DNA of 64,000 nt from Anaerolineales bacterium (lineage in GTDB: Bacteria > Chloroflexota > Anaerolineae > Anaerolineales > E44-bin32): the NCBI GenBank assembly GCA_040899905.1, contig JBBDZX010000005.1, forward strand, positions 629,722 through 693,721, written 5' to 3'. The position numbers and the translations under genes were made by a program. Positions 36,851 to 57,281 of the stretch are shown piece by piece. Within the stretch, counting starts at the first letter, position 1; each line of letters opens with the position of its first letter. The notes beneath the pieces were generated by a model. That model had not been told where the DNA came from. It ran no database searches and saw only the letters and a program-made list of their open reading frames with translations.

Positions 36851-36952
36851 CTATTGTGCCTGTGGGTGCTGACAAGCGCCCGTCTGGTTGGCGCTGGTAG
36901 GCGCCTCGCGCGGCTCGAAGAACGGCTCGGGTGCGATCATCAGGACCTTCAT
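36851..36952 (-). pseudogene. GT4 5' fragment (about 23 homologous codons, then divergence and a stop)
   Basis: [23 protein letters not shown]... Its ATG forms an ATGA overlap with the stop of the SIS-GAF gene. It has higher GC than the intact GT4 48 nt downstream. Confidence 0.7.
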
Positions 36953-38238
36953 GGCTCCCCCTCCGCCTCACTCACCTCCGTCATCCGCGGCCATGCGGCG
37001 CCGGCGCCCTGGGCCGGGGCAGCGCGCAACTCCGACCGCTGCTTGACACCCTCCGCCCGAGGCGGGATGGGGGGCGCCCCGGCACTCAAGGAAATGCCCC
37101 CCGCGAGGGCGCTCAACAGGGCCAAATCCCGTTCGGTGAAGCGGCGAGTATCCGGATTCACCAATGTCAGGACACCGATTACACGTTCGCCACCTATCAG
37201 CGGCACGCTGATGGCCGAGCGGGGAGCATTGAGGGCGTCCCACTCCGAGGCCAGCCAGCGAGGATCGCGCTGGGTGTCCTCGACGAGGGCTGGGTTCCCG
37301 TTCCGGAACACCCAGCCCGCCAACCCCCTCCGGAGGGTATCGGCCAGCTGGTGGGGAGCCGGCGGACGGACTTCGCCGGCGTAAGCCACCGCGCCCTCGA
37401 CCAGGTTGCCCGCCTCGTCGAGGACCATCAGGCTTCCGCTCTGCGCCCCGACGTTCTCGACGGTCAGCAACAGCGCCTCCTGCAGCAGGTTGCTGAGGTC
37501 CTTGCCCTCGTACAGCCCTTGCCGCAGTGCGCTCAACGTGCGGCGCCATTTGCCGTCGGTCCCCAAACCATCCAGAACGGCCGGTACTGCCTCGGGGAGA
37601 ACCGCGTCGGACGAACGGCCGAGCTGTTCGGCCTCGTCCCGCAGCGCTTTGCAAATCATGTGCTCGAGCATCAAGTGGACGTCTTCGACGTGCTCGACGC
37701 AGTCGCTCTCGACATGCACGTTCCACTGCACCAGTGAGGCCAGGCGGCCTCCGGAGAATCCAGTGAATCCGATGGTGGTCGCGCCCCGCAGGTTGGCCGC
37801 CTCGACCGCTTCGAGCACGTTGGGGGAATTTCCCGAGGTGGAGATGGCAATCACCACGTCGCCGGATTGCATCAGGCCGATGAGCTGTTCGGCGAACACC
37901 CTCTCGAAGCCGTCGTCGTTGGCGTAGGCGGTGAGGATCGCCACGTTGTCCGTAAGGCCGATCACCCGGAAGCCGGGCCAACCGGCGCGCCGGGTGTTCT
38001 TGGCCAGATCGCAGACGAAGTGCGAGGCGGTCGAGGCGCTGCCTCCGTTCCCCAGGATGAAGACATGCCGCCGGCTCAGCCGCGCTTCGTGCAGAAGGTG
38101 AACCACATGCTCGACCCGGTCCCGGGGGAGCCGATCCAGCGTTGCCTGTAGGTCCGACATATAGGTATCGATAGTGCCCATCCCTCCTCCTCCCGCGGCC
38201 CGGCCGGGACTGCTGCCGGTGCCGGCGGCCAGCGTCAT
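36949..38238 (-). CDS. SIS (GmhA-like sedoheptulose-7-phosphate isomerase) fused to a C-terminal GAF domain
   Basis: SIS domain: [21 protein letters not shown]...[17 protein letters not shown]-like domain: [30 protein letters not shown]...[12 protein letters not shown]...[20 protein letters not shown]...[13 protein letters not shown]. The ATG at 38238 has an ATGA overlap with the kinase stop; an alternative ATG lies at 38181. Confidence 0.8.
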
Positions 38239-39212
38239 CGTCTGTAGTTGAAGATCGTCTTCGAGCCGTCCGCTTCGAGCTTGTACGGAAGTTCGCGCAG
38301 ATCGCGCAGGGCTTCGCGCACGGCCTCCCGGCGCTCCAGCGGTGCGTACACTAGCAGGAACCCTCCGCCGCCCGCGCCGGAGATCTTTCCTCCCAGCGCG
38401 CCGGCCGACCGGGCGGCCTCGTATATGGCGTTGATCCTTCCGTTCGTCACCCCGCTGGCCAGCAGCTTCTTCGCCTCCCACGCCTCGTGCAGCAGGGAGC
38501 CGACGGCGTCCACATTCCCCGCCAGGAGTTCGGCCCGAGCGGTGCGGGCCATGGCCTTGAGCCGCCGAAGCACCGTCAGCCGATCCTGGATGTTCGACTC
38601 CTGTTCGGCCAGGATGGTCTCCGACTTGCGCGCAAAACCAGTATAGAACAGCATCAAGCTCTCGTTCAATCGTCGGATCTGCGACTCATCCACCAGCACC
38701 CTTTCGCAGTGAATCTCGCCGCTGGTGTTGAACTCCATGAACCGCAGCCCGCCGAAGGCGGCGATGTATTCATCCTGGACACCCATCGGCTTGTGCAGGG
38801 TATCGATTTCGATTTCGCACGCCTCGCGCGCCAAGCATTCAGCCGTCACGCTTTCTCCCAGGTAGGCGTACATGGCATGCAGCGCCCCCACGGTGACCGT
38901 GCTGGAAGAGCCCAAGCCGGAACCGGCGGAGGGAATGTCTCCCATGGTGGTAATTTCGACCCCGCGTTGGATCCCTGTCTTCCGCAGCGCTTCCCGGATG
39001 AGCTCGTGCTGGACCTCGTCCACGCGGTCGACCATCTCCGTGCGGGTGTAGCCGATGCGCAGCTTGTCGTCGAAGCGCTTCTTGATCGTGACGAAGATGG
39101 ACTTGTCGATGGCGTAGCTGAGTACGCAGCCGCCCTCCTGGAGGAAGTACGAGCGAAAATCCGTGCCGCCGCCGAACAGGCTCACCCGCAGCGGCGTCTG
39201 GACGATAATCAC
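38235..39212 (-). CDS. hddA: GHMP-family sugar kinase (D-glycero-D-manno-heptose 7-phosphate kinase-like)
   Basis: [19 protein letters not shown]...[15 protein letters not shown]...[12 protein letters not shown]...[14 protein letters not shown]. The GTG start overlaps the epimerase TGA (GTGA). The symbol is family-level only. Confidence 0.85.
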
Positions 39213-40141
39213 GCACCCACCTCCATCTGCTGGAAGTGCCGCACGGTCTCCCGCAGGCCTTCCTCCAGGCCGACTCTCGGGCTCCACCCCAGTTCTCTGG
39301 CGGCTTTGCTCGCATCCAGGTAGATCCTTCGGGTCTCGCCCAGCTTGGCCGGACCGTGAACAGGTTCCCGGCGGTATCCCGTGATCACCTTCAAGCTCCG
39401 GAACACTTCGTTCACCGAAGTCCCGGTGCCCGTGCCAAGGTTGTAGATGCCGCTTCCGTCCGCCTTCCTTAGCGCCTGCAGATTGGCTTGCGCGCAGTCC
39501 CCGACGTAGACAAAGTCGCGCACTTGATCCCCATCGCCGTTGATGATGACCGGTCCATCGGCCAGCATGAGGCCGGTGAAGATCGCCACCACGCCTGCTT
39601 CTCCGTGGGCATCCTGGCGCGGTCCATAGACATTCGGGTAGCGCAGGACGGTGTACTCCAGGCCATAGTTGAGACGGTACATGAACAGGTAGTGCTCTAC
39701 GGTGTGCTTGGAGGCGCCATACTGGCAGATCGGGTTGATCGGGTGCGATTCGTCGCAGGGCAGATACTCCGGCTCTCCGTACACCGCGCCGCCCGTCGAA
39801 ATATACACAAGCCGCCGCACGCCGTACTTCCGAGAGCACTCCAGAAGGTTCAGCGAACCCAGGATGTTCACATCCGCATCCAGGACAGGCTCTTCCACGG
39901 ACCGGCGCACGTCCATCTGCGCCGCGTGATGATTCACGACCTCCGGCTTTTCCAGCTCGAAGATCGAAGCCATCTCCGGACTGCGGATGTCCGCTTCGTA
40001 GAATGTGGCGCGCGGGTTGAGGTTGCGCCGATGGCCTGTGGACAGATCATCCACCACCGCCACCTGATGGCCTTGCTCAAGATAGAGGTCGACTACATGC
40101 GAGCCGATGAAGCCGGCTCCGCCGGTTACGAGGATTTTCAC
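39209..40141 (-). CDS. NAD-dependent epimerase/dehydratase (UDP-glucose 4-epimerase-like)
   Basis: [18 protein letters not shown] and [11 protein letters not shown] (YxxxK). Confidence 0.9.
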
Positions 40142-40177
40142 ATTCGTTTCCTTGTCAGATGGAGAGGGAGGCCCGGC

Positions 40178-41680
40178 TCAGTACGCGCCGCGGGCTTTCA
40201 GGACCGCCGGGATGGTCTGCCAAAGCAGCTGCAGATCGAGCCAGATATTCCAGTTCCGAATGTAATGCATGTCCAGCCGCACGCGCTCCTCGTAGCCGAT
40301 CTCCGATCGACCGCTCACTTGCCACAGTCCGGTAATTCCGGGGTGGACAGTGAGCAGGTTGATCCCCCACTGCTCGTAGCGGGCCATCTCGGCCGGCGAG
40401 ATCATGCGTGGGCCCACGAGCGACATCTCCCGGCGGAGCACATTGAATAGCTGAGGGAGCTCGTCGAGGCTATAACGCCGCAGAAATCGACCCACCCGGG
40501 TCACGCGCGGGTCGTCCTTGAGCTTGTGCGCGTGGGCCAGTTCGGCCTGCAAGTCCGGACGATCGGCCAGGATCTGGTCTCCGTCCACGCGCATGGTCCG
40601 GAACTTGAAGGCGTCGAACTGCTGGGCATTGACCCCCATCACTCTGCGCCGATGGATGATCGGGCCGGGGGAATCGAGGCGGACCAGCAGCGCCAAGCCG
40701 GCCAGCAAGGGCGCCAGGAACACCACCGCCGCCGTGGTCAGGACGTAATCCAGGGCGGCTTTGATGGCCGAGTCGACTCCGGTCAGCCTCACCCGGTTCA
40801 CCCCGACCAGCGGCACGTAGGCCAGCTCTTTCACGCTCAATCCCGTGGTGATGATCTCGTACAGTCCGGACGACATCCGCAAGTGGATCCCTTCCGACAC
40901 CCCATATCGGCGAAAGATGGCCAGCATGGCCTCGCGCGAGAGCGCGCTGCTCGCCAGGATCAGCTCCTCCACGCCGTGTTCGACGATCAACCGATCCAGA
41001 TCCCCGAGGGCGCCCACCACTCGCAGGTTCTGCGGCAATTTCATGCCCGGATCCTGCTCGCCGTCCACGAAGCCCACCAGCTCGAGCCCGGAAGTCCTCC
41101 ATCGCAGGAGCTGCTCGGCCAGAGCGCTGGCCTCGGCGTTCGCCCCCACGATCAGCGACCTCGCCATGAAGAAGCCGTGCGATCTCAACCTGTACGCGAT
41201 TCGACGGATCACCAGCCTTCCAAGGCTGATGAACAGGAAGGTCAGTCCCCAGGCCATCAACACCCAGCCTCTGGCGACGATGAGTTGAGGATCGAGGAAG
41301 CCGGCCATTACGATGAACAGCAGCCCGATGCTGGTCCCGCGGAAGACCCGCGAGTACTCCTCTGTCCCGCCCAGCAACACCTCACGCTGATAGAGGCCGA
41401 CCACGGCGAAGCTCAGGAGCCACACCGGAGTCAGAACGAGCACCAGCCTGTCGTAATAGACCTTCGACGCAAGCACCTCGGCGAAGATCGACAGGCCGGT
41501 CTCGAATCGGATCCAATAGGCGGCGCGGAGGGCGAGTCCCACCATGAGCAGGTCGGTGACGATCAGGCTGACGATGAGCGCTTTCCACTCCCAGACGCGG
41601 ACGTTCCAGCGCCGGAGCGCGTTGCCTCGCTCCGCCTTGTTCAAGGGGATGCCCTCAAGCACGGGCGCGGATGAGCCCAT
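40178..41680 (-). CDS. polyprenyl-phosphate sugar phosphotransferase (WbaP/large PGT type, priming enzyme)
   Basis: N-terminal TM helices and a C-terminal sugar-transferase domain (DELPQLFNVLRREMSLVGPR...PGITGLWQVSGR). Confidence 0.92.
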   Translation of the reverse strand: MGSSAPVLEGIPLNKAERGNALRRWNVRVWEWKALIVSLIVTDLLMVGLALRAAYWIRFETGLSIFAEVLASKVYYDRLVLVLTPVWLLSFAVVGLYQREVLLGGTEEYSRVFRGTSIGLLFIVMAGFLDPQLIVARGWVLMAWGLTFLFISLGRLVIRRIAYRLRSHGFFMARSLIVGANAEASALAEQLLRWRTSGLELVGFVDGEQDPGMKLPQNLRVVGALGDLDRLIVEHGVEELILASSALSREAMLAIFRRYGVSEGIHLRMSSGLYEIITTGLSVKELAYVPLVGVNRVRLTGVDSAIKAALDYVLTTAAVVFLAPLLAGLALLVRLDSPGPIIHRRRVMGVNAQQFDAFKFRTMRVDGDQILADRPDLQAELAHAHKLKDDPRVTRVGRFLRRYSLDELPQLFNVLRREMSLVGPRMISPAEMARYEQWGINLLTVHPGITGLWQVSGRSEIGYEERVRLDMHYIRNWNIWLDLQLLWQTIPAVLKARGAY

Positions 41681-42890
41681 GGTAGATCTCCTCCAATCTC
41701 AACGTGATCCGCCCCCAGTCATGATGTTGCTGAACGTATCGGCGGCCCCCCTCCCCCAGTCGTGCCCGCGCCGCCGGACTGCTCAGCAGGTCGCTCACCC
41801 CCTGAGCGAACTCGGCCTCGCCCGTCCGGACCAGCGCCTGCCCCTCACCGGTGAGGGATAGCCCGCGGGCGGCGACGTCCGAGATGACCGTTGCCGTGCC
41901 GCAGGACATGGCCTCGAGGACTTTGTTCTGAATGCCTGCGCCGTAGCTGAGGGGCGCCACGGCCACGGCTGCTGTGCGCAAGTACGGTCTCACATCCGGG
42001 ACCGTCCCCGTCACGTGTACTCGGCCGGGCCGGGCTAGGCGGCGCACCTCTCGCGCCGGATCCTTGCCCACGATCCACAGCTCGACGTCCGGGTGCCGCT
42101 CGGCCACCCGCGGGAGGATGTTTCTCACGAACTCCACCGCCATCGTCACGTTGGCGTGGTAGCCCATCTTGCCGGTCATGATCAGCCGATTCGTTGAGCG
42201 GCTGGCCGGATCCCCAGGGGTGAAGTATTCTGCGTCGACCCCGTTGCTGACCACGGAGACCGCCCGGGGCGTCCGGGGCCCGTTGGCCAGACTCCGCAGT
42301 GCCTGGGCGTCGTACTCGGATGTGGCCAGAACCTGGTCAAACTCGGACAACAGGCGTGCTTCCAGCCGGGCGGTCCGTTCCGTCTCGAACCGTGTCATCC
42401 AACGACTGAAGGCAGAGCGGCTCCGCCGGGAAGCCTGCTGGAAAAGCAGGCTGATGCAGTCGACGCTGTCCCAAACGATCGGGGGTCGGTCGGCTTCCGC
42501 CTGGAACTGACGCTTCAACCACAACCCGTACAGAGCGCCGCGTAGATGCTCGACGTGCACCAGATCGAACGGCCGGCGGCCGTTGGAGCCGGCAAGCAAT
42601 GCCGTCATGGCCCGCGCCGCCCCGGGCGACCAGGAGAAGACTGCCTGCAGAGGGAAACGGCCTGGCAGCGCCCGGATGCAGTTCCATGCCGAGCGCAACA
42701 GGGGAAGCTGCGTGCCGCGAATATCAATCCCCTCCCGCCGCAGTTCCTCAGCGCTCTTCAGCTCCCTGGGGGAGGTCCACACAGTCGCCACGGTGACGCG
42801 GTGCCCGTGGGCGGCGAGCTGCCGGACTAGGTGGTACGAGCGGGTCCGGATCCGATCCGGAACGTAAGGGACCACGAACAAGATGTTCAT
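41655..42890 (-). CDS. GT4-family glycosyltransferase
   Basis: MNILFVVPYVPDRIRTRSYHLVRQLAAHGHRVTV and a GT-B C-terminal domain. Confidence 0.88.
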   Translation of the reverse strand: MNILFVVPYVPDRIRTRSYHLVRQLAAHGHRVTVATVWTSPRELKSAEELRREGIDIRGTQLPLLRSAWNCIRALPGRFPLQAVFSWSPGAARAMTALLAGSNGRRPFDLVHVEHLRGALYGLWLKRQFQAEADRPPIVWDSVDCISLLFQQASRRSRSAFSRWMTRFETERTARLEARLLSEFDQVLATSEYDAQALRSLANGPRTPRAVSVVSNGVDAEYFTPGDPASRSTNRLIMTGKMGYHANVTMAVEFVRNILPRVAERHPDVELWIVGKDPAREVRRLARPGRVHVTGTVPDVRPYLRTAAVAVAPLSYGAGIQNKVLEAMSCGTATVISDVAARGLSLTGEGQALVRTGEAEFAQGVSDLLSSPAARARLGEGGRRYVQQHHDWGRITLRLEEIYHGLIRARA

Positions 42891-42964
42891 CGAATTTGCC
42901 TGGGCGAACCTGGGCTAAGCGGGACCGGGGGATGCGGTTGTCTTGGTCGGTGAAGTCGAGGGTT

Positions 42965-43996
42965 CTAGAACCGTGGGAGCGCTGTTAATAGTCGCAGATA
43001 GTTGGGAGCCAGCGATCGATCCCACCTGGCGCCCGGCAGGACAACGACGACCACCCCGACCAGAATGCGAGGCAGCGAGGCCAACACCAGGAGGAACTTG
43101 TACGCCGCTACCGCCATCCGGCCCCGATGCTTTCGGAAGAAGCGGACCTTGCTCTCATACAGGCGAAGGAACATCTCTTCGCGCAGCTGCATCGTGCTCT
43201 GTCCGCCCAGGTGAACCACCCTGGCTTCGGGGACCCAGTGCACCGTCCAACCCGCGTGCCACAGACGCCGGCACAGGTCCACTTCTTCCGTGTACATGAA
43301 GAAATTCTCGTCCAGCGCACCCACTTGGTCCAACGCCTCCCGCCGCAATGCCAGACACGCCCCCTGCGCTACATCCACCCGGCGCGGCTCGGCTCCCCAT
43401 CTTTCCAACGGGTAGGTGGAGAGCCTCATGAGGCTGTCTAAGTTGAACAAACGCCAGAATTCCCGCAGCAGCCCGGGCGAGGGATGGGCCGATGCCTGAA
43501 GGGATCCATCCGGATTCACCAGGCAGGCGCCCGCCGCTCCCGCCTCGGCATGCTCTCGCATGAACCGCATCAGCGTCGCCAGCGCTCCTGGGATCACCAG
43601 GGTGTCCGGGTTCAGCAGCAACAGCAGGGGACCGTGGGCCGCGTCGATCCCCTGGTTGGATGCCCGGGCGAATCCGGCATTTCCCGCGTTCCGGATCAGC
43701 ATCACCCAGGGAAACTCGGCGGCCACCATGGCTTGGCTGCCATCCGAGGAGGCGTTGTCCACCACGACCACTTCAACTCGAGCGGGCGCCAGCCGAGCGA
43801 TCTCGCCCTCGACAGAAAGTAGGCAATCTCGCAGAGCTTCGCGGACGTTCCAGCTGGCGACGACGACCGAGAGAGCGACCGCGTCATCGGCGCCGCCTCC
43901 ATCACTCATGGGCGTCCGCGTTCGCCGCAGACCTGGTGCCGCGGTGACCATGGGATCCGCCTGGGGCCTCCGACCGGATCGTCGCGCCATCAGCAT
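42965..43996 (-). CDS. GT2-family glycosyltransferase
   Basis: LSVVVASWN...VVVVDNASSDGS...NAGFARASNQG. The true start may be the ATG at 43909. Confidence 0.88.
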   Translation of the reverse strand: MLMARRSGRRPQADPMVTAAPGLRRTRTPMSDGGGADDAVALSVVVASWNVREALRDCLLSVEGEIARLAPARVEVVVVDNASSDGSQAMVAAEFPWVMLIRNAGNAGFARASNQGIDAAHGPLLLLLNPDTLVIPGALATLMRFMREHAEAGAAGACLVNPDGSLQASAHPSPGLLREFWRLFNLDSLMRLSTYPLERWGAEPRRVDVAQGACLALRREALDQVGALDENFFMYTEEVDLCRRLWHAGWTVHWVPEARVVHLGGQSTMQLREEMFLRLYESKVRFFRKHRGRMAVAAYKFLLVLASLPRILVGVVVVVLPGARWDRSLAPNYLRLLTALPRF

Positions 43997-44099
43997 GCAG
44001 ACCGCCTTGGCTGGATGATCGCCAGGTATTCCTGCCCTTGCCGCCTGTACGGGACTCGTGGCGTCATCGACCGGGACGGTCGCGCGGATCGAGAGACGA

Positions 44100-45371
44100 T
44101 CATCGCGCCTTCGCCATTCGCACAGTGCTCCCCGAAGGGGATCGCGGCTGTTCCGCGCGCGCGTAGGCGCGATCCAGCCCCTTCAGCACCGCTCGCCAGT
44201 CGTAGCGTACCTCGGCCAGCCTGCGGCCCCCTTTTGCCAATCGGGCTTGCAACGCTGGGTCGCGCAGGACATTCACCACTTGCGCAGCAAAGCCCTCCGG
44301 ACTGTCCTCGACCAGCAGGTCCTCTCCGGGTCGGGCATCGATGCCTTCCCGGCCGATGCTGGTCGTCACCACAGGCATGCCCCGGGCCATCGCTTCCAAG
44401 ATGCGAACCCTCATCCCACTCCCCGAGAGGACCGGGACGACCACTACGGCCGCACGCTGCAAGTACGGAGTCAGATCCGGAATGTATCCTGTGACGTGCA
44501 ACCTATCGGGTCGCTGCCGGGCCCACCGAAGGAAATCCCGAGGAGGGTTCCTCCCCACGATCGTCAGCCGTGCTTCTGGGACCTCGGCCAGAATCCGCGG
44601 GAATACAGCCTTCAAGAACCAACGCACACCCTCCGCGTTGGGCGCGTAGTGCAAGGTCCCGACGATGAGGATATCCGGGCCGCGCGGCGATCGGTTCACC
44701 GACGTCACCACCTCCGTGTCCACCGCGATCGGCACCACGCTGATACGGTCCTCCTCCGGTGCCGTCCCTCCGTCCGCCGCGGCGGCCAACAGGTCACGTC
44801 GATCGGCCTCACTCACCACCAGAGTGTGTTCGAACGCCCGGACGACACGGCCTTCATAGGCACGGACGCGCCGCGTTTCCCAGCCCAGTATGGCGCGCAC
44901 GGCTGGCGCGGACCCTCGCGTCATTCGGTCCAGGATGGTCCAGGTGGCATTGTGCGCGTCAAAGATTCGATAGGGGTGCAAGCCGGAGCCGTTCGGCGAG
45001 AGGACAAACTGGGTCATGGTCAGCTGGTCGGCGTGGACCACATCCCACTCGCCCGCGGAGAGGCATTCTCTTACGGCGCGGCGCATGCGCGAGAGATCGT
45101 CACGGATGAGCAGGAACGACCGACCGGTGAGTTGGCTCCGGAGCAAGTGCCATCCGTCGGCCAATCGGGATCGGCGCAGCGGTACGGCCACGACCCTGTC
45201 GCAATGCTCGGCTATAGCCGGCAAGTGGGCGCGTTCCTCCGGCCGGACAAAGGAGACCAAGGTGATCCGATGACCGCGCTTCGCCAGGTGCTGGAGCACA
45301 TGCCAAGTCTTCACGCGCGGGCCGGCATCGGGCGGATACGGCAGAATCTGTGTCAGGAGGAGCACGCGCAT
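44100..45371 (-). CDS. GT4-family glycosyltransferase
   Basis: MRVLLLTQILPYPPDAGPRVKTWHVLQHLAKRGHRITLV and a GT-B C-terminal domain. Confidence 0.88.
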   Translation of the reverse strand: MRVLLLTQILPYPPDAGPRVKTWHVLQHLAKRGHRITLVSFVRPEERAHLPAIAEHCDRVVAVPLRRSRLADGWHLLRSQLTGRSFLLIRDDLSRMRRAVRECLSAGEWDVVHADQLTMTQFVLSPNGSGLHPYRIFDAHNATWTILDRMTRGSAPAVRAILGWETRRVRAYEGRVVRAFEHTLVVSEADRRDLLAAAADGGTAPEEDRISVVPIAVDTEVVTSVNRSPRGPDILIVGTLHYAPNAEGVRWFLKAVFPRILAEVPEARLTIVGRNPPRDFLRWARQRPDRLHVTGYIPDLTPYLQRAAVVVVPVLSGSGMRVRILEAMARGMPVVTTSIGREGIDARPGEDLLVEDSPEGFAAQVVNVLRDPALQARLAKGGRRLAEVRYDWRAVLKGLDRAYARAEQPRSPSGSTVRMAKAR

Positions 45372-45560
45372 GAAGGTCTAGGGAGCGGCACTCCGCTCAG
45401 GCTTCCTCTTTCCGCGCCTCGCCACCGGTGCGGCGACAGCGGCGCCGAGGGCTGTCGCCGAACAGTGGGTCCGGGACCCCCGGACGTTCGAGCCAATCGC
45501 GTGTGAGCAGCGTGGTCGTGGCCAAGATCGCGTCGTGGTGGTGCGGCAGAATCGGTGCGG

Positions 45561-46699
45561 TTAGAGTCCCATCAGCCGGGCGGCGGTGACGCGCTGGATA
45601 TCGGATGTCCCCGAGTAGATCGTCCCGCCGATCGAATCGCGCAGGTCTCGCTCGACTTCGAACTCGGTCATGTACCCGTAGCCGCCGTAGACCCGGATGG
45701 CGTCCAGACTGGACTGGAGGAAACATTCGCTCAGGTAGAGCTTGGCCAGCGCCGCCTCCTGGACGGCCGGCTGTCCGCTCTTCTTCATCCAGGCGACCTT
45801 GTACAACAGGAGGCGGGCCGTCTCCAGGCGGACGCGCATATCGACGATCCGATTGGACACGGATTGAAACTTGCCGATGGGCTGACCGAATTGCTGGCGT
45901 TCCCGGGCGTACCGGATGGACCCCTCCAGCTGCTGCTCCATCGCCCCCAGATGGCTGGCCAGGATACAGCTGCGTTCCCACTCCATCGAACTGTTGAAGA
46001 TCTTCGCTCCGGCCCTTCCGATCCGAGGCGGCCGGCCTCGGGAAGGAAGCAGTCCTCCAGGATGACCTCCGCCATCGGCGACGTCCGCAGACCCAACTTT
46101 TCGATCGCCCGGCTGACGCGCACCCCGGCGTCCCGCGCTCGACCAGAAACGCCGTCACGCCCCACATCCCCTTGGACCTGTCGACGGTGGCGAACACGAG
46201 GGTGATGTCGGCGACGGGGGCATTGTCACGAAGGTCTTCGTCCCGTTGGGCAGGTAGCCGTCGCCCCCGCGTTCGGCACATGCCCGCAGGCTGTAGGCGT
46301 CCGTTCCCGAATCGGGCTCACTCATCGCATGCGCGCCGATCCACTCGCCGCGCACGAGCGGTGGCAGGAAGCGAGCCTTCTGCTCCGGGGTGCCGAAGTC
46401 GAGGATGGGCATCTGGACCGACCACATTTGTGCGTTGATGGCGAAGATCAGGCCGTTGTCGCGGCAGCCGTAGCCGGGGCCTTCCATCGTCAGCATCGTC
46501 GTCAGGATCTCGGCGCCGCGCCGCCGTAAGCCTCGGGCATCGGCAATCCCTGCAAACCGAAGCGAGCGCAGACGCGCCAGCCGTCGCGGGAGAGTTCGCC
46601 GGCACGATCGCGCTCGATCAGCCCTTCGTTCAGCTGCCGGCCGAGGTCAACGGCTGCCTTGAGGTAGGTCAGCTGTTCGTCCGTCCAGGAGAAGTCCAT
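45561..46699 (-). pseudogene. acyl-CoA dehydrogenase with at least 4 frameshifts
   Basis: Collinear ACAD segments lie in alternating frames. They are MDFSWTDEQL...; ...AHAMSEPDSGTDAYSL...GTKTFVT; NAPVADITLVFATVDRSKG...; ...IEKLGLRTSPMAEVILEDC...; and MEWERSCILASHLG...IYSGTSDIQR. Confidence 0.85.
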
Positions 46700-49715: not shown

Positions 49716-50603
49716 CTATGGCGTGGGCTCCTCAGTCGGCGGCGGAGGCGGGTCCGTTGGGGTCGGAGGTGGGTCAGTTGGAGTCGGAGGCGCGTCCGTC
49801 GAAGTCGGAGGCGGGTCAGTCGGAGTCGGAGGTGGGTCAGTTGGAGTCGGAGGCGGGTCCGTCGGGGTCGGGGGAATCGCCGTCGCCGTGGCAGTTAGGG
49901 TCGGAGTGACTGTGGCGCTGGGCGTCGGAGGAATCGCCGTCGCCGTAGCAGTTGGGGTCGGAGTGACTGTGGCGCTGGGCGTCGGGGTCCGAGTGGGAGT
50001 CCGCGTAGGGGTAGATGTCGGCGTAGAAGTAGGTGTCAGTGAGGGAGGAGGATCTCCGGGATCGACCGCAGTGGGTATCGGGAGAACCGACAGAACATAG
50101 AAAGTGGCCGTAAACACAAGCTGGAGATCAGAAAGGCCATCCAAGTGCTTGTAGACCTTGATCTCGGCTTGGCTGCCGGCGGGCAGCGCCGGTCCAATGC
50201 AATAGAGCTTATCAGGATACCAGGGAGGGATGAAGCAACTGAACTCCTTTTCGGTCCAGGCCGTCACCGTCGCCGTAAACGAGCCCTCGAGGCCTCCCGG
50301 CACCACGATCCGGACCATCGAGCGACCGAAGGCCATGAGTGAGACGCCCTCCACATACGCCCCGGCGAAGGGATCGAGGCGCGTGGCAGTCGCCGCCAGC
50401 GTAGCGGTGGACGTCGCGGTGCTCATCTGCGTAGCTTCCGGCAGGACCTGGGTTGCCGAGGGCGTGGCGCTGAACGGTCGGCCCAGGAACAGTGGGTTGG
50501 GCCGCTCTGGAGCCGCCAACTCAAGTATCGCGAAGGGAGCCGCCAGCGCCAGCAACAGCGTTACGGCAATCGTGGCAGCCATGACCTTCGGCGAAAGTGG
50601 CAT
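49716..50603 (-). CDS. membrane-anchored/secreted protein with long C-terminal Pro/Thr tail
   Basis: MPLSPKVMAATIAVTLLLALAAPFAIL is followed by a small globular domain. About 110 aa of PT repeats then end at the stop. Confidence 0.75.
   Translation of the reverse strand: MPLSPKVMAATIAVTLLLALAAPFAILELAAPERPNPLFLGRPFSATPSATQVLPEATQMSTATSTATLAATATRLDPFAGAYVEGVSLMAFGRSMVRIVVPGGLEGSFTATVTAWTEKEFSCFIPPWYPDKLYCIGPALPAGSQAEIKVYKHLDGLSDLQLVFTATFYVLSVLPIPTAVDPGDPPPSLTPTSTPTSTPTRTPTRTPTPSATVTPTPTATATAIPPTPSATVTPTLTATATAIPPTPTDPPPTPTDPPPTPTDPPPTSTDAPPTPTDPPPTPTDPPPPPTEEPTP
49745..49987. repeat. coding tandem repeats: 21-nt units (PTDPPPT, ~6 copies) followed by 2 x 57-nt units
   Basis: GTCGGAGGYGGGTCMGTYGGR units recur. 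GGAATCGCCGTCGCCGT.GCAGTT.GGGTCGGAGTGACTGTGGCGCTGGGCGTCGG occurs at 49873 and 49930 (period 57). Confidence 0.75.
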
Positions 50604-50811
50604 TATCACCCTCGGACTCTCGAAGCACGAGTCCAATCAACCCATACGACTGCTCAGCCGCGACGTCGCGTTGTTCTGCCACACTTCGCGCCCGGATCGG
50701 CGGCTCAGTGTCACAGTGGAGGAGTATTCTCGGTTTCACGATTTCGATGTCTACTTAGACGGGGACCATCAAGATGGATCGAGTTTCCAAACTGAGCGAC
50801 CCGATCCGGAC

Positions 50812-51300
50812 ATGAAGAAACCGGCTTCCCATCCGGCTGCTTCCCCCGGCCAGCCCTCCTGCTTGACCCCGACGGCGTCATCGTCGCCAATCACGAGGAG
50901 GATGTGCGCCCACGGATCAGGTCGAGGTTTTCGACCAGGGCCTCGAGACCCTGGGACAGTCTAACCAATCCGGGGACCTGATCATTATCGTGACGAACCA
51001 GTCCGCGGTCGGCCGCGGCCTAATCGGCCTAGAAACGGCGTAGGAGATCAATCGCCCTGTCGTCCGCCGTATCGAACAGGCCGGCGGTCGGGTGGACGAC
51101 GTCTAAATGTGCCCGCATGCGCCAGCGGCCGGCTGCCCCTGTCGGAAGCCGCGGCCGGGGCTGATCCTAGAGGCGGCCCGGGAACACAACCTCGACTTGC
51201 GCAGGTCCACCTCGCTCGGGGAAGCGCTGACGGAGGCGCAAGCCGGACAGGCCGCCGGTTTGGGGACGACGGGACTGCTCAGCACTTGTCGCGTCCGGTC
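50812..51300 (+). pseudogene. gmhB, third copy, decayed (frameshift, in-frame TAG and TAA)
   Basis: ALLLDPDGVIVANHEEDVRP, a frameshift, then DQVEVFDQGLETLGQ...IIIVTNQSAVGRGLIGLETA*EINRPVVRRIEQAGGRVDDV*MCPHAPAAGCPCRKPRPGLILEAA... Confidence 0.8.
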
Positions 51301-51473
51301 GCAGGCCCTCCCCCCCGGGCCGCCGAGCTTTCAGCCTTCGAGATTCACGATTCACTGCTCGGGGCGGTCACTTCGCGGCTGGCGTCGGATCCTTCCCCCG
51401 CGAGAGCTGACGTCCGAGTCGATCAAACGAGGAGCCCGGCCTCCTGATCTCCGCTTCCTTTGTTGACGCGCTA

Positions 51474-53150
51474 TCAGGAATGACCGTCAGAATCTCGGCC
51501 TTCGCCCGAGGCCCCCGGGTCCGTTGTGGAACGCGCCCGGCCCCGAAGCCGGTCTACGAAGGCGCGGATTGGGCCACGCCCGTTGCCGACTCCTGGCTCC
51601 ATGCGGCCGGAACCATACCAGTACCCCAGGTAACCGTGCGAATAGGCCCGACTCGGGTCATTGATCACGATCCCGACGATCTTGCCATTCACGCGGCGAA
51701 GCTGATCGACGGCATGCTTGAGGGCCGACTCGGGGGTGTGCTTCAGGCGAACCACCACAAGGACTCCGTCCACGCTGGATGCCAGGACAGATGCATCAGC
51801 CAGCAGCGAGGGTGGGCTGTCAATAATCGTGACCTCGTACTCCTCATTCACGCTGGCCATGATCTGTTTCATGCGGGGGGAGTTCAGGATTTCGACTGGG
51901 CCAGGGCCGCCGCTCCCCGCCGGAATGACCCACAGGTTGTCGCTCACCGAGGAACGCTGCGAAACCGTCTTCAGCGGCGGCTTGGCGCCGAACAGATGCC
52001 GCAGGCCCTCGAGATTCGTGACCCCCAGCAGCTTGTGAGAGCTCGGCCGGCGAAGATCGGCATCGATCAGCAGTGTCTTCCTCCCCGCCTGCGCGTAGGC
52101 CCGCGCCAGGTTGGCGGCCACCATGCTCTTCCCATCCCCCGAACCGGGACTGACGACCAGGATGGATCGAAGAGGGATCTCGCCACCGGCGAAATCCAGA
52201 TTGATCCGCAGCGCGCGGAAGGCCTCGTAGTCCGGAGTGGCCGTATCAGTCACCTGGACACCCCCAGGAGAATCATCCTGGCTCCGCACCGAGGCGCGGG
52301 CAAGCCTGCCAATCACCGGGGCATCGGCGGCGCGCATGACGTCCTCCGGCTCGCGCAGAGTTACGTCCAAATGCTCGAGAAGATACGCCGCGCCTCCGCT
52401 GAGCGCCAGCGCGAGCGTGGCCGCCAAAGCGACATAGACCCAGTTCTCAGTGTTGACCGGGCGAGTTGGTAGGTCAGCCGACTCAACAACGCTGATGGTG
52501 TTGACCGGCTCTTCGTCGGTCACACTCAGTAGGGACGCATAGGTGGATTGCAGCGTCGTGAGCTTCGTCTGGAGCGCAGACAGGTCTGTCTGTGCGTCGG
52601 CGATTTGTTCGGCGCTGGTGAACTCCGCCAGGTCGAGCTGTGCCACAGCTATGGCATCCTGAGTCTCGATGATCTTCTCCTCCAGGTAGCTCAGCTGCTC
52701 CTGAATAAACTGCTCACCCTCCGGGTTGACCTGAGACATGGTCTCAGGGACGCGGGCGATGAGCTGCACCGCCAGTTCATTAGCTACCGCTTGGGCGCGG
52801 GCTGGGACTGTGTCTTGGACTACGATCTCGATCAGCTGTCCATCTACAGGAACGGTAACAGTGTAGTTTGGCAGTCCGTCCAGCCCCAGTGCCTCCATCG
52901 TCGCATTGCGAACCGGCTCACGCTTGGCGATGTCGGCGTAGAGACCGGCCAGCAGACGCGGGAGTGTAAAATCCGTGTTCGTCGGATTCGGGGATTGGAT
53001 TGTGCTGCCGACAATGAGCGTCGTCCGCGAAGCATAGAGAGGCTGCTGTCGCTCGACGGCAAAGTAGCTTGCCCCCGTCGCCAACAGGACGGAAAGCACA
53101 ACGAGCCACCACCAGCGTGCGATCGGACGAAGAGTAAAAGAAGCATCCAT
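51474..53150 (-). CDS. Wzz-domain / BY-kinase polysaccharide co-polymerase (Wzc/CapAB-like tyrosine autokinase)
   Basis: The N-terminal chain-length-determinant domain has TM helices. Walker A is SPGSGDGKSMVAANLA, Walker A' is LLIDADLRRP and Walker B is VTIIDSPP. The tail is Tyr-rich (YSHGYLGYWYGSG). Confidence 0.9.
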   Translation of the reverse strand: MDASFTLRPIARWWWLVVLSVLLATGASYFAVERQQPLYASRTTLIVGSTIQSPNPTNTDFTLPRLLAGLYADIAKREPVRNATMEALGLDGLPNYTVTVPVDGQLIEIVVQDTVPARAQAVANELAVQLIARVPETMSQVNPEGEQFIQEQLSYLEEKIIETQDAIAVAQLDLAEFTSAEQIADAQTDLSALQTKLTTLQSTYASLLSVTDEEPVNTISVVESADLPTRPVNTENWVYVALAATLALALSGGAAYLLEHLDVTLREPEDVMRAADAPVIGRLARASVRSQDDSPGGVQVTDTATPDYEAFRALRINLDFAGGEIPLRSILVVSPGSGDGKSMVAANLARAYAQAGRKTLLIDADLRRPSSHKLLGVTNLEGLRHLFGAKPPLKTVSQRSSVSDNLWVIPAGSGGPGPVEILNSPRMKQIMASVNEEYEVTIIDSPPSLLADASVLASSVDGVLVVVRLKHTPESALKHAVDQLRRVNGKIVGIVINDPSRAYSHGYLGYWYGSGRMEPGVGNGRGPIRAFVDRLRGRARSTTDPGASGEGRDSDGHS

Positions 53151-53219
53151 CAGTGTATTCGCGGAAGGGCTTCAAATCGCTGCCCTGTGCCCGCGCTCCC
53201 TCCTTTCAAAGGACCGGCA

Positions 53220-53363
53220 ATCGTCATAAGAATGTTCCTCTGCGGTAGGTCACCAGATCGACAGTGTGCCCCAGCCGGTCACCCCACGCAACCGCCGCAA
53301 AACGCTGATCGGCGTGCCCCGCGGTTCAAAGAACGGCTCGGGCGAGATCATCAGGAACTTCAT
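53220..53363 (-). pseudogene. GT4 5' fragment (third copy of the MK(V/F)LMI(A/S)PEPFFEPRG start)
   Basis: MKFLMISPEPFFEPRGTPISVLRRL..., then a frameshift and a stop. It has an ATGA overlap with the upstream chimeric ORF. Confidence 0.7.
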
Positions 53364-53764
53364 GGCTCCCCTTCCTCCTTGGCCGATCCCTTCGTACGGG
53401 GCCAGCCCGAGGGGACGGAACCAGCCGGCCTCGCCAACGCGACGCCCACCGGCGCCCGCTCCCCGCCGTTGTTGAGCGAGCCCAGGATGTTCACCTGCGC
53501 GTCGAACAGGGGATCGGCCACCGACCGGCGCACGTCCATCTGCGCGGCATGATGGTTGACCACCTCGGGTCGCTCCCGCTCGAAGACTTTCCGGACCGCT
53601 GGGTCACGGATGTCCATTTCATAGACGCGCGCCTCTTGGTTGAGGTTCGACCGCCTGCCGGTCGAGAGAGAGTCCAGGACGACCACATCATGGCCCTCCT
53701 GGAGATACAGATCGACCACGTACGACCCGATAAACCCGGCGCCGCCGGTAGCCAGGATGGTCAT
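53360..53764 (-). pseudogene. chimeric remnant: epimerase N-terminal 98 codons fused to a SIS-GAF-tail-like ~36 codons
   Basis: An AAGGAG RBS precedes [25 protein letters not shown]...[12 protein letters not shown]...VNILGSLN, by eye clearly homologous to 39209-40141. It then continues ...SGWPRTKGSAKEEGEP*, compared with ...[16 protein letters not shown] at 36949. Confidence 0.7.
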
Positions 53765-53929
53765 GAATGCTCCTTGCTTGAAGGTGAGTGGCTCGGCCTG
53801 CCGCGACCGCATGCCGAAGGGGGTATCACCGCCGGCCCGGCCAGCGCCTGTTGCGCCTTCCGCGCCGTCCTGGCCTTCTTCGCAGGCAGCCGGTAGAGAC
53901 GGCTTCGCCCGCTTTGGTTTTTCCACCTG

Positions 53930-54060
53930 GCCGCCACCAACGACCGGGATGGTCTGCCAGAGAAGCTGCAGGTGGCGAACACGAGGGTGAGGTCGCAGGC
54001 GGGGAATTGGTCACAAATGTCTTCGGCCCGTTGCGCACGTCGGCGTTGGCCGGAAGGTCT
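53930..54060 (-). pseudogene. fused fragments: ACAD internal piece joined to the last codons of a sugar phosphotransferase
   Basis: 53971-54045 matches 46186-46260 at about 80% (manual alignment, 60/75). CCGGGATGGTCTGCCAGAGAAGCTGCAG matches 40208-40235 (26/28). Confidence 0.65.
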
Positions 54061-54114
54061 GTGACGGCCCAGAAGGGAGTCCGTATCAGGCCCTGGGCGC
54101 TCGTGTTACCTGCT

Positions 54115-55551
54115 TCACGCTGGCCTTGGCAAGGGCTGCTCATCCGAGCGGGAAGAGTCATGCATGGTGGCGACCCGATGCAGGCTGAGCGCCGCTCCCA
54201 GGAACATCCATCCTGGTACAGCGTCCCGCATGCCGGCCAGTGTGATGTTGTACACGAAGGGTAACAACCAATCCGCCAACATTCCGGCCGCCACCATCCC
54301 TATCAGTCCTCCGAATAGGGAGTAGCTAAGCGCCCTCAGGAATCCGGAGACTCTCTGGTAGCCCCTTAGCCGCCAGAGTAGGGCGCCTGTGGAGACGGAG
54401 TACCACAAGAAAGCGGCGGCTCCTAGGAGCCCGGTCTGGGCCAGGAGGTCAATGTACTGATTGTGTGAGTTGAATAGCACGTTCCAGCCGAGAATCGGGT
54501 TTTCGATGGTATAGAAACGGTAGTTTGCGGGGCCAAAACCGAGTAGAGGACTCCGCTCCATCACCATCCCGACGACAATCTTCCCTGCCTCCACTCGAGT
54601 GACAGCGCTGTACTCCTCGTTAATGAGCAGCAGATCAACTATCTCGGACGCAAAGATGGCTCCCAGTATGAGCATAAACACCGTTGCTACAGCCGCAAAT
54701 CGCGGCCTTGCAGCCCATAGGAGGGCAGTCAAACCAACCAATGCAGGGAGCCATCCTGAGGCAAACTGGGGAGTGATTACTAGTCCCATATACAGAGAGA
54801 CGGCCGTGATCCCTACCAAGACGACTCGCCACAACACCGAGAGCTGGCTATTAAAGAAAGCCTGCCCGAACGCGAGGCACGTCATCCAGGTCCAGAAGAG
54901 GGGTCCGTTTGGACTCTGAACAACCACGAAGGATAGCGCCGCTTGCACGGAGGGAAAGAAAGTGAGCAAGACATACACACTGCCAAAGCCCAGGAACAGC
55001 CAGACCAACCGTTTCAGCCACCGCTCCGTCACAATGTAGCGATCCATTATGAAGACCAGACACGGGAGCAGGACGAGGACCCCAAGCTGGCCCAACTGAG
55101 CTGTCATTGGGGCAGGATCCAGGGGATACCACGGTAGTTGTCCGGCAAGAAAGGAAAGGAGCGTGACTGCAATAAAGATAGACAGCGGTAGATAGATAGA
55201 CGGCACCGTGAGCCGAACGTTCTGTGAGTCGCCGGTAGATACCTCAAGCAGGAAAGCCCCCACCACGAGCGCAAGACCAACCACGCTCATACTTACCTCT
55301 GTTCCTGTTCCGGTCCCAATCGTGATCGGCACCAGGAAGGAAAGCATCATGAGGCCTAGCAGCCCGACCGGTGGCCGTTTGAGCACGATGACTGTCAAAA
55401 GTAGAGCGGCGATCCCGCCGAGCGCCACGGCGATCAACTGCCGCGAACCGAATAGGCCAAGGATGGGACCGCTCAGAAGCACCAGAACCACTATCGCCAA
55501 GCGGCGATAACGATTATTGCTTTCCTGCCGCCACTCCCTTGTCCGAATCAT
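54115..55551 (-). CDS. O-antigen ligase/polymerase-like (Wzy_C domain) membrane protein
   Basis: It has at least 10 TM helices and FNSHNQYIDLLAQTGLLGAAAFLWY. Confidence 0.85.
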   Translation of the reverse strand: MIRTREWRQESNNRYRRLAIVVLVLLSGPILGLFGSRQLIAVALGGIAALLLTVIVLKRPPVGLLGLMMLSFLVPITIGTGTGTEVSMSVVGLALVVGAFLLEVSTGDSQNVRLTVPSIYLPLSIFIAVTLLSFLAGQLPWYPLDPAPMTAQLGQLGVLVLLPCLVFIMDRYIVTERWLKRLVWLFLGFGSVYVLLTFFPSVQAALSFVVVQSPNGPLFWTWMTCLAFGQAFFNSQLSVLWRVVLVGITAVSLYMGLVITPQFASGWLPALVGLTALLWAARPRFAAVATVFMLILGAIFASEIVDLLLINEEYSAVTRVEAGKIVVGMVMERSPLLGFGPANYRFYTIENPILGWNVLFNSHNQYIDLLAQTGLLGAAAFLWYSVSTGALLWRLRGYQRVSGFLRALSYSLFGGLIGMVAAGMLADWLLPFVYNITLAGMRDAVPGWMFLGAALSLHRVATMHDSSRSDEQPLPRPA

Positions 55552-55779
55552 GCTCCCATCCTGGCGCGGGTCCGACCGTGTGGCTCCGGACCCAGTCGCT
55601 TCACCAACTCGAACCGGTCAAAACATCCAAGGGAAAACCTAGGGGCGGCCACGCTCGGCTGGCGGGTCGAACCCATATAGGTCAGGAGACTTCTCTCCAG
55701 CGACAGGCCTGCGATGAGCATGGGACGCAACCACAGCCGAGCCCTAGAGAGGGTCTCAGGCTCCGGCGGTCGCGTCGAT

Positions 55780-56832
55780 CTACGTTTTGGGATGTCCAAA
55801 TGCGCCCATTCCTTCACGGTAGCCTCGGAAGATGTAACCGCCAACCACATACCGGTAGAGCGCCCTGAGCATCCCAGATGCCGGTCGCCACTTCTCCAAA
55901 GCCCTGACGGCGTGCTCCATGCACCACAACGCCGCCGGAGCTGAGGACAGCGAGCGGGCCAGTTTGCGGACGATCAAGCGCGTCCGATCCTTCCCCCAGG
56001 CGATGGGCGTCTTATCGTGGAACATGGGAGTGTGCTCCATCAGCTCAGGGTACTTCTGGAAGAGGACCACGGAGCGGTAGGCGGCCGTCCTCCAACGCTG
56101 GCTATAGGAATACAGCGTACGAGTGTAGCGATCCTGGTGCCAACAGATCGCCTGATGGCTGCGACGGAACTCAAAGCCTTTCTGAAAGGCGCGATAGTTG
56201 AAATCAAGATCACACCATATGCTCGATCCGGAGAAGGCCAGGCCCTGCATCATGCCAATCTCAAAGAAAGCTTCTCGCTCGAGCGCCATGTTGTTGCTGT
56301 GAATCTGGGTGAACGACAGTTCGGTTGTGGCCGTTGCGCGCTCCGCCATCTCGGAAGCGTGCAACGCCTCCACAAGCGGGGTCGATTCCGGAAGCCACGG
56401 TTTCCATATGCCGGCCACAATCCGACGGCGCCGCCCCGCAAGGGTGTGGACGAGTCCGGCCAAATAGCCTGGGTCCAGCACCATATCGTCGTCGATGAAC
56501 ACCAGCAGCTCGGCAAGACTGTGCCGGGCACCTAGGTTGCGAGCTGACGCATCCCCCTGGTTGCGTTGACGGTAGTAGCGTAGAGCAAAAGGAAATTGCT
56601 CGGCTGCGATTGCCTCCGTTCCATCCGTAGAGCCGTCGTCGACCACGATAATCTCAAGGCGATCGTTCGGATAGGTCTGCTGGGAGAGTGCATGGAGCAT
56701 GTTGCCGAGGAACTCCCTCCGGTTGTAGGTGGGGACAATGACGCCCAGCGAAGGGAGGGACGGACTCAAGCGCCCTCGTTCGGCCGACGGAAAGGCGATC
56801 TCCTTGAACTCTCCTTCGATCTCATTTAACAT
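55780..56832 (-). CDS. GT2-family glycosyltransferase
   Basis: LGVIVPTYNRREFL...IIVVDDGSTDGT...FIDDDM. The ATG at 56832 is preferred over the long upstream extension. Confidence 0.85.
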   Translation of the reverse strand: MLNEIEGEFKEIAFPSAERGRLSPSLPSLGVIVPTYNRREFLGNMLHALSQQTYPNDRLEIIVVDDGSTDGTEAIAAEQFPFALRYYRQRNQGDASARNLGARHSLAELLVFIDDDMVLDPGYLAGLVHTLAGRRRRIVAGIWKPWLPESTPLVEALHASEMAERATATTELSFTQIHSNNMALEREAFFEIGMMQGLAFSGSSIWCDLDFNYRAFQKGFEFRRSHQAICWHQDRYTRTLYSYSQRWRTAAYRSVVLFQKYPELMEHTPMFHDKTPIAWGKDRTRLIVRKLARSLSSAPAALWCMEHAVRALEKWRPASGMLRALYRYVVGGYIFRGYREGMGAFGHPKT

Positions 56833-57281
56833 GCGGGCACTGGCGACCGCTCGGTCACAGTTTGCTGACTTGCGATGGCCACCCTCCGGCGCAACTCGCG
56901 ATCCGCAACGGCGAGGAGGTTTCCGGAAGGTTGTAGGCGTCGCCCGGCGCGAACACCAATCCGTTTTCGCCGTGCTCGAAGATCTCGGGAGTTCCGCCCG
57001 TCGGTGTGGCGACGACGACCAGACCAGGCCATACCCTCCAAGGTCATTCGGGAGAATGGCTCCGGCCACGTCGAAGTCACAACGAGGGCGTCGAACTGCA
57101 TGAGAAGTTGGGGGACTCTGGCGGCTGCCACGTGCCCCAGGAAGGACACGTACTCGTCAGCCAGGCCTGCGACACGAGCTGCTGTAACCAGCTCTTTATG
57201 CCCGGCCGTGCCGGAGCTCGCCAGGCTCAGGTGGACATTCCGAGGGCCATGACCCTGGCCCAGCCTTTTCAGCGCCGCCAA
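56826..57281 (-). pseudogene. GT4 3'-half fragment with two internal frameshifts
   Basis: It is collinear with the C-terminal half of 57288-58544 (VHLSLASSGTAGHKEL...VSFLGHV...TSTWPEPFSRMTLEGMAWSG / LVVVATPTGGTPEIFEHGENGLVFAPGD / ...DRELRRRV). It begins right after that gene's stop, and by eye its GC is higher than that of its intact neighbour. Confidence 0.7.

Follow-up and report, generated by a model that had tools for sequence, protein, structure and literature searches.

In a 64-kb window of DNA from an uncultured member of the Anaerolineales (Chloroflexota; contig JBBDZX010000005.1), we identify a 0.8-kb relic that we consider, with a probability of about 0.88, to be the non-functional remnant of a second, paralogous glycan cassette reduced by serial deletions. 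All coordinates given here are positions in this window, and the relic, the operon that it matches and the flanks are read on the minus strand. The relic lies in an interval of 965 nucleotides (nt) without a long gene, bounded by the stop codon (54115) of a Wzy_C-family gene and the start (53150) of a gene for a wzc-like tyrosine kinase. Within it, 53245-54051 is made up of five collinear fragments, namely the middle of an acyl-CoA dehydrogenase (ACAD) gene, the tail of a phosphoglycosyl transferase (PGT) gene, codons 1-98 of an epimerase gene, the tail of a SIS-GAF gene and the start of a GT4-family glycosyltransferase (GT) gene. These match, on the same strand and in the same order, a larger operon at 36.9-46.3 kb, hereafter the resident operon.

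The matches emerge from a word-7 BLASTN search of 53100-54200 against the rest of the window (Table 1). As a control, 53220-54060 was shuffled 200 times and each version scored against the window: the shuffles top out at 36.5 bits, as against 135, 81.5, 70.7, 47.3 and 44.6 bits for the real matches. Thus, the five elements that the original prediction had described by eye, in one order on one strand, are all present, and the collinear short blocks expected against 36800-46300 are found (45-135 bits). The homology to functional genes has E values of 9e-6 to 2e-33 within the window and down to 2e-83 against relatives, and the identity and reading frame of each element are borne out by translated comparison. 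The ACAD match, first aligned by hand at 60 of 75 positions, is prolonged to 54051 by local alignment. The last codons of PGT encode LQLLWQTIPVV as against LQLLWQTIPAV in the resident gene, and the epimerase piece, predicted to hold the first 98 codons, is 71% identical to the resident protein over residues 3-98 (blastx, E 1e-42). The SIS-GAF tail is weakly similar to the resident gene (10/24 amino acids (aa), E 0.07) and clearly similar to that of a relative described below. The ATGA-overlapped GT4 start, also correctly predicted, is in addition 76% identical to the full-length GT4 gene at 36804. The elements retain about 27 codons of ACAD (with a frameshift), 11 of PGT, 98 of 310 of the epimerase, 36 of about 420 of SIS-GAF and 43 of about 404 of GT4 (with a frameshift). 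The predicted spacer with an AAGGAG ribosome-binding site is likewise present, with the site at 53770-53775, but the resident operon provides no counterpart for it: the gap between PGT and epimerase there is 36 nt as against 174 nt, and the 174-nt spacer has no match elsewhere in the window by BLASTN or translated comparison.

The origin of the relic is revealed by contigs of related organisms, in which a search for an intact second copy at this position, as the original prediction had proposed, was positive in three cases (L006, the P0121 contig and L085). Homologs of the wzc protein include three with 86% aa identity. The wzc gene of L006 is 90% identical in nucleotides to that of the window (synonymous divergence, dS, 0.19), and immediately upstream of it are an intact GHMP kinase gene and an intact SIS-GAF gene. 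The segment 53292-53469 of the window, comprising the SIS-GAF tail and the GT4 stub, is 81.5% identical to L006 2170-2347 over 178 nt (E 3e-44), as against 70% to the resident operon; in L006 the match takes in the last 110 nt of the SIS-GAF gene and the decayed GT4 stub that follows. Among wzc relatives with SIS-GAF upstream, the nearest is the P0121 contig, which has the order SIS-GAF, a 70-aa open reading frame (ORF), wzc. The other side of the relic is seen in L085, which we recovered by scanning metagenomes with the kinase of L006. GT2 and Wzy_C of this contig are 90% identical in nucleotides to 54053-56838 of the window (dS 0.16-0.31). Behind Wzy_C, L085 has the same 62-nt flank (92%), a 220-nt ACAD fragment, about 90 nt of the same PGT tail in decayed form and a homologous spacer of about 175 nt, and beyond this spacer the epimerase, GHMP kinase and SIS-GAF genes are intact and GT4 is of full length. 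The spacers of the window and L085 are 66% identical in the 5' half and 79% in the 3' half, with an identical Shine-Dalgarno region, and the GT4 peptides of the relic (MKFLMISPEPFFEPRGTPISVL.. and ..LGHTVDLVTY) match GT4 of L085 and of a further contig, L087. Intact syntenic counterparts therefore exist on both sides: SIS-GAF upstream of wzc in L006 and P0121, and the cassette behind the same Wzy_C flank and scar in L085. Resident-type orthologs are carried by L008 and L009 (PGT 88% and GHMP 94% aa identical). A scan of the species-representative genome collection with the wzc protein gave only a 32%-identical Acidobacteria match and no close genome.

In more distant relatives wzc is preceded by a PMT_2/DUF5060 block, so that the adjacency of the cassette and wzc is a derived state. 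In L004, L005 and L092 this upstream block comprises methyltransferase, hydrolase, DUF5060 and PMT_2 genes, with an apiosidase-family gene also in L004. Homologs of the block (66-75% nt identity) lie in the window at 17500-25100, about 28 kb away from wzc, suggesting that wzc was relocated in the lineage of the window.

The sequence comparisons indicate that the relic descends from a sister cassette of ancient divergence (dS about 1), and not from the resident operon itself. Between the L006-type and the resident cassette, dS is 0.95 for the GHMP kinase and 1.06 for SIS-GAF, while for flanking genes between the same organisms it is 0.13-0.31. Moreover, the tail of the relic is nearer to L006 and its left part nearer to L085. 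Hence the proposal of a diverged operon copy stands in so far as the module once existed a second time just upstream of wzc and was removed by large internal deletions; its parentage has to be revised to the sister cassette.

The deletions can be ordered with the help of the relatives. The ancestral arrangement would have been a full operon (ACAD, three GT genes, PGT, epimerase, kinase, SIS-GAF, GT4), from which a second cassette of epimerase, GHMP kinase, SIS-GAF isomerase and GT4 would have been left. In an old first step, common to L085, about 5.85 kb was lost, from the middle of ACAD to 18 codons before the PGT stop, sparing the downstream sugar-nucleotide genes and their ribosome-binding site. 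In L085 the ACAD homology extends up to ...CTGGTCGACCGCG and the PGT homology starts from GACCGCGTGCG...; the joint falls in GACCGCG, and the resident ACAD (46134-46140) and PGT (40282-40288) both have GAGCGCG at exactly those points, which suggests a deletion between 7-nt direct repeats, presumably by slippage or illegitimate recombination. In a second step, common to L006, GT4 was truncated and joined to the wzc module. As L006 keeps about 25 codons of GT4 and the window 43, this junction appears to have been eroded independently in both lineages. In a third step, confined to the lineage of the window, a deletion of about 2.8 kb removed what lay between epimerase codon 98 and the last 36 codons of SIS-GAF, yielding by chance an in-frame chimera of 134 codons. 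Three further small deletions (312, 106 and about 115 nt relative to the relatives) and two 1-nt deletions followed. All differences of the relic from its intact or longer relatives are deletions. The expectation of at least two large internal deletions is thus upheld, with the additions that the two differ in age, the first being common to L085 and the second lineage-specific, and that at least three smaller ones accompany them. Probably these losses were tolerable, given that the cell obtains the same three enzymes from the resident operon 7 kb downstream.

The original prediction had further described the relic as keeping only its gene junctions. This does not hold: two of the three retained pieces span a gene junction, while the ACAD piece is from the middle of the gene, and in simulations two junction-bearing pieces arise by random placement of pieces of these sizes with P about 0.05-0.08. 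We therefore reject junction retention as a special feature. For one of the two junctions history offers an explanation: PGT-epimerase survived because the first deletion left a working epimerase with its ribosome-binding site, a state that L085 still shows. We also reject the resident operon as a partner in homologous recombination that would have caused the deletions, because such exchange would remove the 7 kb between the direct copies and not internal parts; L085 looks like that outcome. There is no insertion sequence (IS), transposase homology (blastx) or repeat family in 52900-54300, other than a 15-nt imperfect inverted repeat inside the Wzy_C gene.

Table 1. Parts of the relic, BLASTN matches to the resident operon, losses relative to related contigs, and the resident operon
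Feature	Position in window	Strand	Comparison
3' flank of Wzy_C (O-antigen-ligase-like), left border of relic	54052..54114	-	91.9% identical to L085 8310-8371, directly after orthologous Wzy_C (91.6% nt)
ACAD mid-gene fragment (about codons 145-171), one 1-nt deletion	53972..54051	-	80% vs resident ACAD pseudogene 46186-46266; 88-90% vs longer L085 ACAD fragment 8684-8762
PGT (Bac_transf) last 11 conserved codons, stop lost	53939..53971	-	26/28 nt vs 40207-40234; PGT residues 483-493
Spacer, 174 nt, with inherited Shine-Dalgarno AAGGAG at 53770-53775	53765..53938	-	homologous to L085 spacer 8893-9071
Extended-SDR NAD-dependent epimerase, codons 1-98, frame intact	53471..53764	-	PF01370 positions 1-97 of 240, E 7e-20; 71% aa vs resident, 77% vs L085
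SIS-GAF (sedoheptulose-7-P-isomerase-like) last 36 codons and stop, fused in frame to epimerase fragment	53360..53470	-	orthologous to tail of intact L006 SIS-GAF
GT4 glycosyltransferase 5' fragment, about 43 codons, one frameshift; ATG overlaps upstream stop as ATGA	53245..53363	-	79% nt vs start of intact L085 GT4 (12273-12390)
Conserved leader of wzc-like tyrosine-kinase gene, right border of relic	53151..53244	-	86-91% identical in L006 and L004
Chimeric ORF, 134 codons: epimerase residues 1-98 and 36-residue SIS-GAF tail	53360..53764	-	called by gene callers in both other assemblies
BLASTN match, ACAD	53971-54046	-	resident 46186-46261; 80.3% over 76 nt; E 7e-14
BLASTN match, PGT tail	53944-53971	-	resident 40207-40234; 26/28 nt; E 9e-6
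BLASTN match, epimerase	53471-53758	-	resident 39848-40135; 70% nt; E 2e-33
BLASTN match, SIS-GAF stop and GT4 start	53303-53379	-	resident 36892-36968; 83%; E 4e-17
Loss of 312 nt between Wzy_C flank and ACAD piece			L085 8372-8683
Loss of 106 nt spanning the old joint			L085 8763-8868
Loss of about 2.8 kb, epimerase codon 99 to 36 codons before SIS-GAF stop			vs L085 and L006
Loss of about 115 nt of wzc-module upstream DNA common to L006 and L004			L006 2363-2477
Resident paralogous operon: ACAD pseudogene, GT4, GT2, GT4, PGT (Bac_transf), extended-SDR epimerase, GHMP kinase, SIS-GAF, GT4 5' stub (69 nt)	36892..46698	-	ORFs and Pfam

Several points weigh against this history of simple decay in place. 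The GAGCGCG microhomology of the old joint was deduced from paralogs rather than from the true parental sequence. In L006 the contig ends 24 nt upstream of the GHMP kinase gene, short of any epimerase or ACAD-PGT scar. The three assemblies of this organism in which the relic is found may share the same reads. The chimeric ORF keeps a canonical Shine-Dalgarno sequence and ATG, with no internal stop or frameshift over its 134 codons, so that it could conceivably be translated. Finally, the orthology of the epimerase piece to that of L085 is not clean (75% nt identity, proportion of synonymous differences 0.56, all pairs being strongly diverged), and the left half of the relic may have had a more mosaic history than a plain series of deletions in situ.

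In one alternative, the junction-bearing scars are homology anchors for the exchange of cassettes between strains, and the relic is the footprint of such a swap. Consistent with this, Wzy_C, the flank and the ACAD piece are about 90% identical to L085 and the PGT tail, spacer and epimerase about 73-75%, with the step falling exactly on the ACAD-PGT joint of the relic; L085 combines a left flank of the relic's type with GHMP and SIS-GAF genes of the resident type (87-95%), as recombination between cassettes would yield; and the epimerase alleles are mosaic in every comparison. The identity step, however, rests on a 79-nt segment and fits the local spread of neutral divergence in the flanking genes (dS 0.16-0.54), such mosaics arise from recombination anywhere in homologous DNA with no role needed for the scars, and the lineage-specific 2.8-kb loss is a plain deletion relative to L006. 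We therefore regard such a swap as unlikely. A more far-reaching version, in which the scars (the ACAD-PGT stub with the 175-nt spacer, and the SIS-GAF tail with the GT4 stub) are conserved homology arms for cassette swaps and fusions across the Anaerolineales, with L085 as one outcome and the relic as the other, or in a weaker variant the Rossmann/SIS-GAF-tail chimera is translated and has acquired a role, appears somewhat more doubtful still.

The mosaic nature of the cassettes in these organisms is nevertheless apparent. In L085 the left side is of the relic's type, and GHMP and most of SIS-GAF are 87-95% identical to the resident copy; the arrangement points to homologous recombination between two direct-repeat cassettes as its probable origin. 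Along L085 9072-12400, the similarity to the resident copy changes close to the boundary of epimerase and GHMP and falls once more over the final approximately 300 nt of SIS-GAF. The portion of the relic's type comprises the Wzy_C flank, scar, spacer and epimerase, with GHMP and SIS-GAF of the resident type adjoining it. Strong divergence of the epimerase is seen in all pairs, with dS at 0.6-1.5 over the N-terminal 98 codons and 0.8-1.2 over the full gene. The fragment in the relic could not be assigned to one allele lineage, being 70-75% identical in nucleotides to every comparator, with L085 as the nearest (75% nt, 77% aa). Separately, the resident epimerase (39209-40141) differs from those of L008 and L085 by a dS of 0.8-1.1 (71-85% nt identity in 150-nt windows), while for the flanking PGT and GHMP genes dS is 0.2-0.35 (88-95%), a pattern that suggests allele replacement confined to the epimerase gene.

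A second alternative is that the relic has been kept because it is used, either through a functional 134-aa chimera (an NAD-binding mini-Rossmann protein) or through a pair of ORFs (134 aa and an ATGA-coupled 37 aa) acting as a leader that tunes wzc. The frame at 53360-53764 is indeed open, as the original prediction had noted, with 134 codons in place of the 135 claimed; its stop forms the native ATGA overlap with the short ORF that follows, and NCBI labels it 'NAD-dependent epimerase/dehydratase family protein'. In addition to its intact start signals, the fusion is in frame, and the GxxGxxG dinucleotide-binding motif is retained as GGAGFIGS at residues 7-14. On the other hand, an in-frame joint arises by chance one time in three, and the catalytic Ser/Thr...YxxxK region and a complete Rossmann sheet are missing, since the Pfam match ends at position 97 of 240 and the resident YGASK lies further downstream. 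An AlphaFold2 model predicts 4 core strands out of the 6-7 of a Rossmann fold, with confidence (pLDDT) dropping over residues 100-134 to below 50 for 114-134, that is, a tail predicted to be disordered. In a search of a large protein database the ORF was found in this organism only, its protein cluster having one member. The 98-aa epimerase fragment gave only short matches there (<175 aa, <=74% identity); several of these, on long contigs, had the appearance of parallel truncations and were rejected as ordinary frameshifted or contig-end genes.

The evolutionary rates of the epimerase fragment also speak against its use. Compared with five intact homologs over its 98 codons, with dS saturated, the fragment shows an omega of 0.13-0.19, as against 0.07-0.14 among the intact copies, and a non-synonymous divergence (dN) of 0.16-0.23, as against 0.03-0.12 (about twofold). 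It departs from its homologs at three nearly invariant positions (K2T, V5A and H15Y). These values suggest a sequence that was long constrained and recently released. With regard to a leader function, wzc of L004, L005 and L092 sits behind entirely different, unrelated upstream DNA, the common part being confined to the adjoining leader module. L004 and L006 share this module with the window directly upstream of wzc; the window keeps its last 94 nt and has lost about 115 bases farther upstream that both relatives retain. Scans of the relic region found no promoter-like or terminator-like site, Rfam family, repeat or tRNA, the only Rfam hit being a chance match of 14.9 bits (gathering score 50) on the other strand inside wzc. 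Together, the sequence and the predicted structure make a function of the ORF unlikely, and retention of the relic through use, in either form, very improbable.

If the resident operon (36.9-46.3 kb) had recently been duplicated within the genome and the copy had then decayed in place, this would account for the shared gene order and strand, the distance of 7 kb and the similar GC content at third codon positions (GC3; 0.83 in the epimerase piece, 0.77-0.85 in the resident operon). This scenario is largely refuted by the divergence of the L006 cassette type from the resident one, which far exceeds that of the organisms, by the greater similarity of the SIS-GAF tail and GT4 start to L006, by the 174-nt spacer found in L085 and not in the resident operon, and by the ACAD-PGT scar that L085 already has. 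Elsewhere in the window GC3 is 0.65-0.72 (the block upstream of the relic, 54.1-64 kb) and 0.54-0.69 (an island at 30-36.85 kb). Lastly, although the source is a metagenome-assembled genome (MAG) in which two paralogous cassettes invite mis-joins, a chimeric or collapsed assembly has a negligible chance of being the explanation, in agreement with the original prediction, given that the relic is 100% identical in the Logan SRR27977660 assembly and in NCBI GCA_040877715.1 (a MAG annotated as Anaerolineales bacterium), three assemblies from different software thus agreeing, that its fragments are 70-83% and not 100% identical to the resident copy, and that orthologous partial scars occur in the independent metagenomes of L085 and L006.

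The resident operon, which serves as the reference here, is also present in the two other assemblies, with ACAD fragmented alike. Its ACAD (45560-46698) is well conserved apart from about four -1 frameshifts, several of which fall in runs of G or C. The Logan and NCBI assemblies show the same fragments, and the gene has either become a pseudogene very recently or carries a sequencing error common to the assemblies. At its other end the operon terminates in a GT4 stub (36892-36959, about 23 codons) that is ATGA-overlapped with the SIS-GAF stop, and L085 has an intact GT4 in this place. A full GT4 with its own ribosome-binding site starts at 36804, within the low-GC island (30000-36850; GC 0.51-0.58, GC3 0.54-0.69). 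This island has the look of acquired DNA that took the place of the original GT4. The SIS-GAF fusion (window 36949-38211; L006 1026-2288) is widespread in Anaerolineales, with 616 proteins at E<=1e-60, and its usual setting is after a GHMP kinase and an epimerase, next to PGT.

Three other features of the neighborhood may be mentioned. A further relic at 56918-57281 corresponds to the C-terminal half of a GT4, contains a single frameshift and has residues 244-364 of the neighboring GT4 (57288-58544) as its counterpart; the L085 homology starts about 80 nt downstream of it, at 56838. Just downstream of wzc, about 790 nt (50753-51543) have no L006 counterpart, the L006 homology skipping from 51544 to 50752, and contain no convincing ORF on the gene strand. 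At 49400-50640 a 306-aa ORF has long Pro/Thr-rich tandem repeats (TPTxTPT...) and no Pfam match, and the Logan contig ends inside the repeat.

The closest precedent for the relic is found in the wzy remnants of Salmonella O-antigen groups B1 and D1 (PMC3715488), and gene remnants are recorded in 9 E. coli O-antigen clusters, where they are listed among the cluster anomalies (PMC7685785). As in these O-antigen and capsule remnants, a glycan gene made redundant by another locus decays within a polysaccharide cluster, strains keep different and partly overlapping remnants, and these mark recent rearrangement. Unlike them, a whole multi-gene module has shrunk here to less than 0.9 kb, one joint has produced an in-frame chimeric ORF, the host is an uncultured member of the Anaerolineales, and no IS or H-repeat element is involved. 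The relic equally resembles the erosion of bacterial pseudogenes under deletional bias (PMC2817411, PMC2916853, PMC6054270), in that its changes are all deletions, from 1 nt to 5.9 kb, with a short direct repeat at the single reconstructible joint and a progressive loss of superfluous DNA; it differs from typical cases in nothing of kind, the unusual aspect being that intermediate stages are kept in environmental relatives. Among protein families, residues 1-98 of the ORF are like the extended short-chain dehydrogenase/reductase (SDR) epimerases (PF01370, GalE-like) in their nucleotide-binding motif and the conserved NHHAAQ strand, and unlike them in having lost the Ser/Tyr/Lys catalytic region and the substrate domain. 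The parent-type cassette, in which a SIS-domain protein (JGI name D-sedoheptulose 7-phosphate isomerase) adjoins a GHMP sugar kinase, shares this pairing with heptose-precursor cassettes of the GmhA/HddA type; in contrast to the latter, its SIS domain is fused to GAF, and it includes no nucleotidyltransferase or phosphatase.

The relic is thus a case of ordinary bacterial gene decay in a polysaccharide locus that is unusually well resolved. Its value is mainly that of a worked example, in which a redundant multi-gene sugar module in an uncultured member of the Chloroflexota can be traced from the intact state to a 0.8-kb scar, with snapshots of erosion from three close relatives (dS 0.13-0.3) that record at least five deletions and no insertions. 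For annotation, the 134-aa protein labelled in GenBank as an NAD-dependent epimerase/dehydratase family protein is a chimeric relic and should be excluded from metabolic reconstructions. More generally, the polysaccharide loci of Anaerolineales are mosaic in the manner of the well-studied O-antigen and capsule loci.

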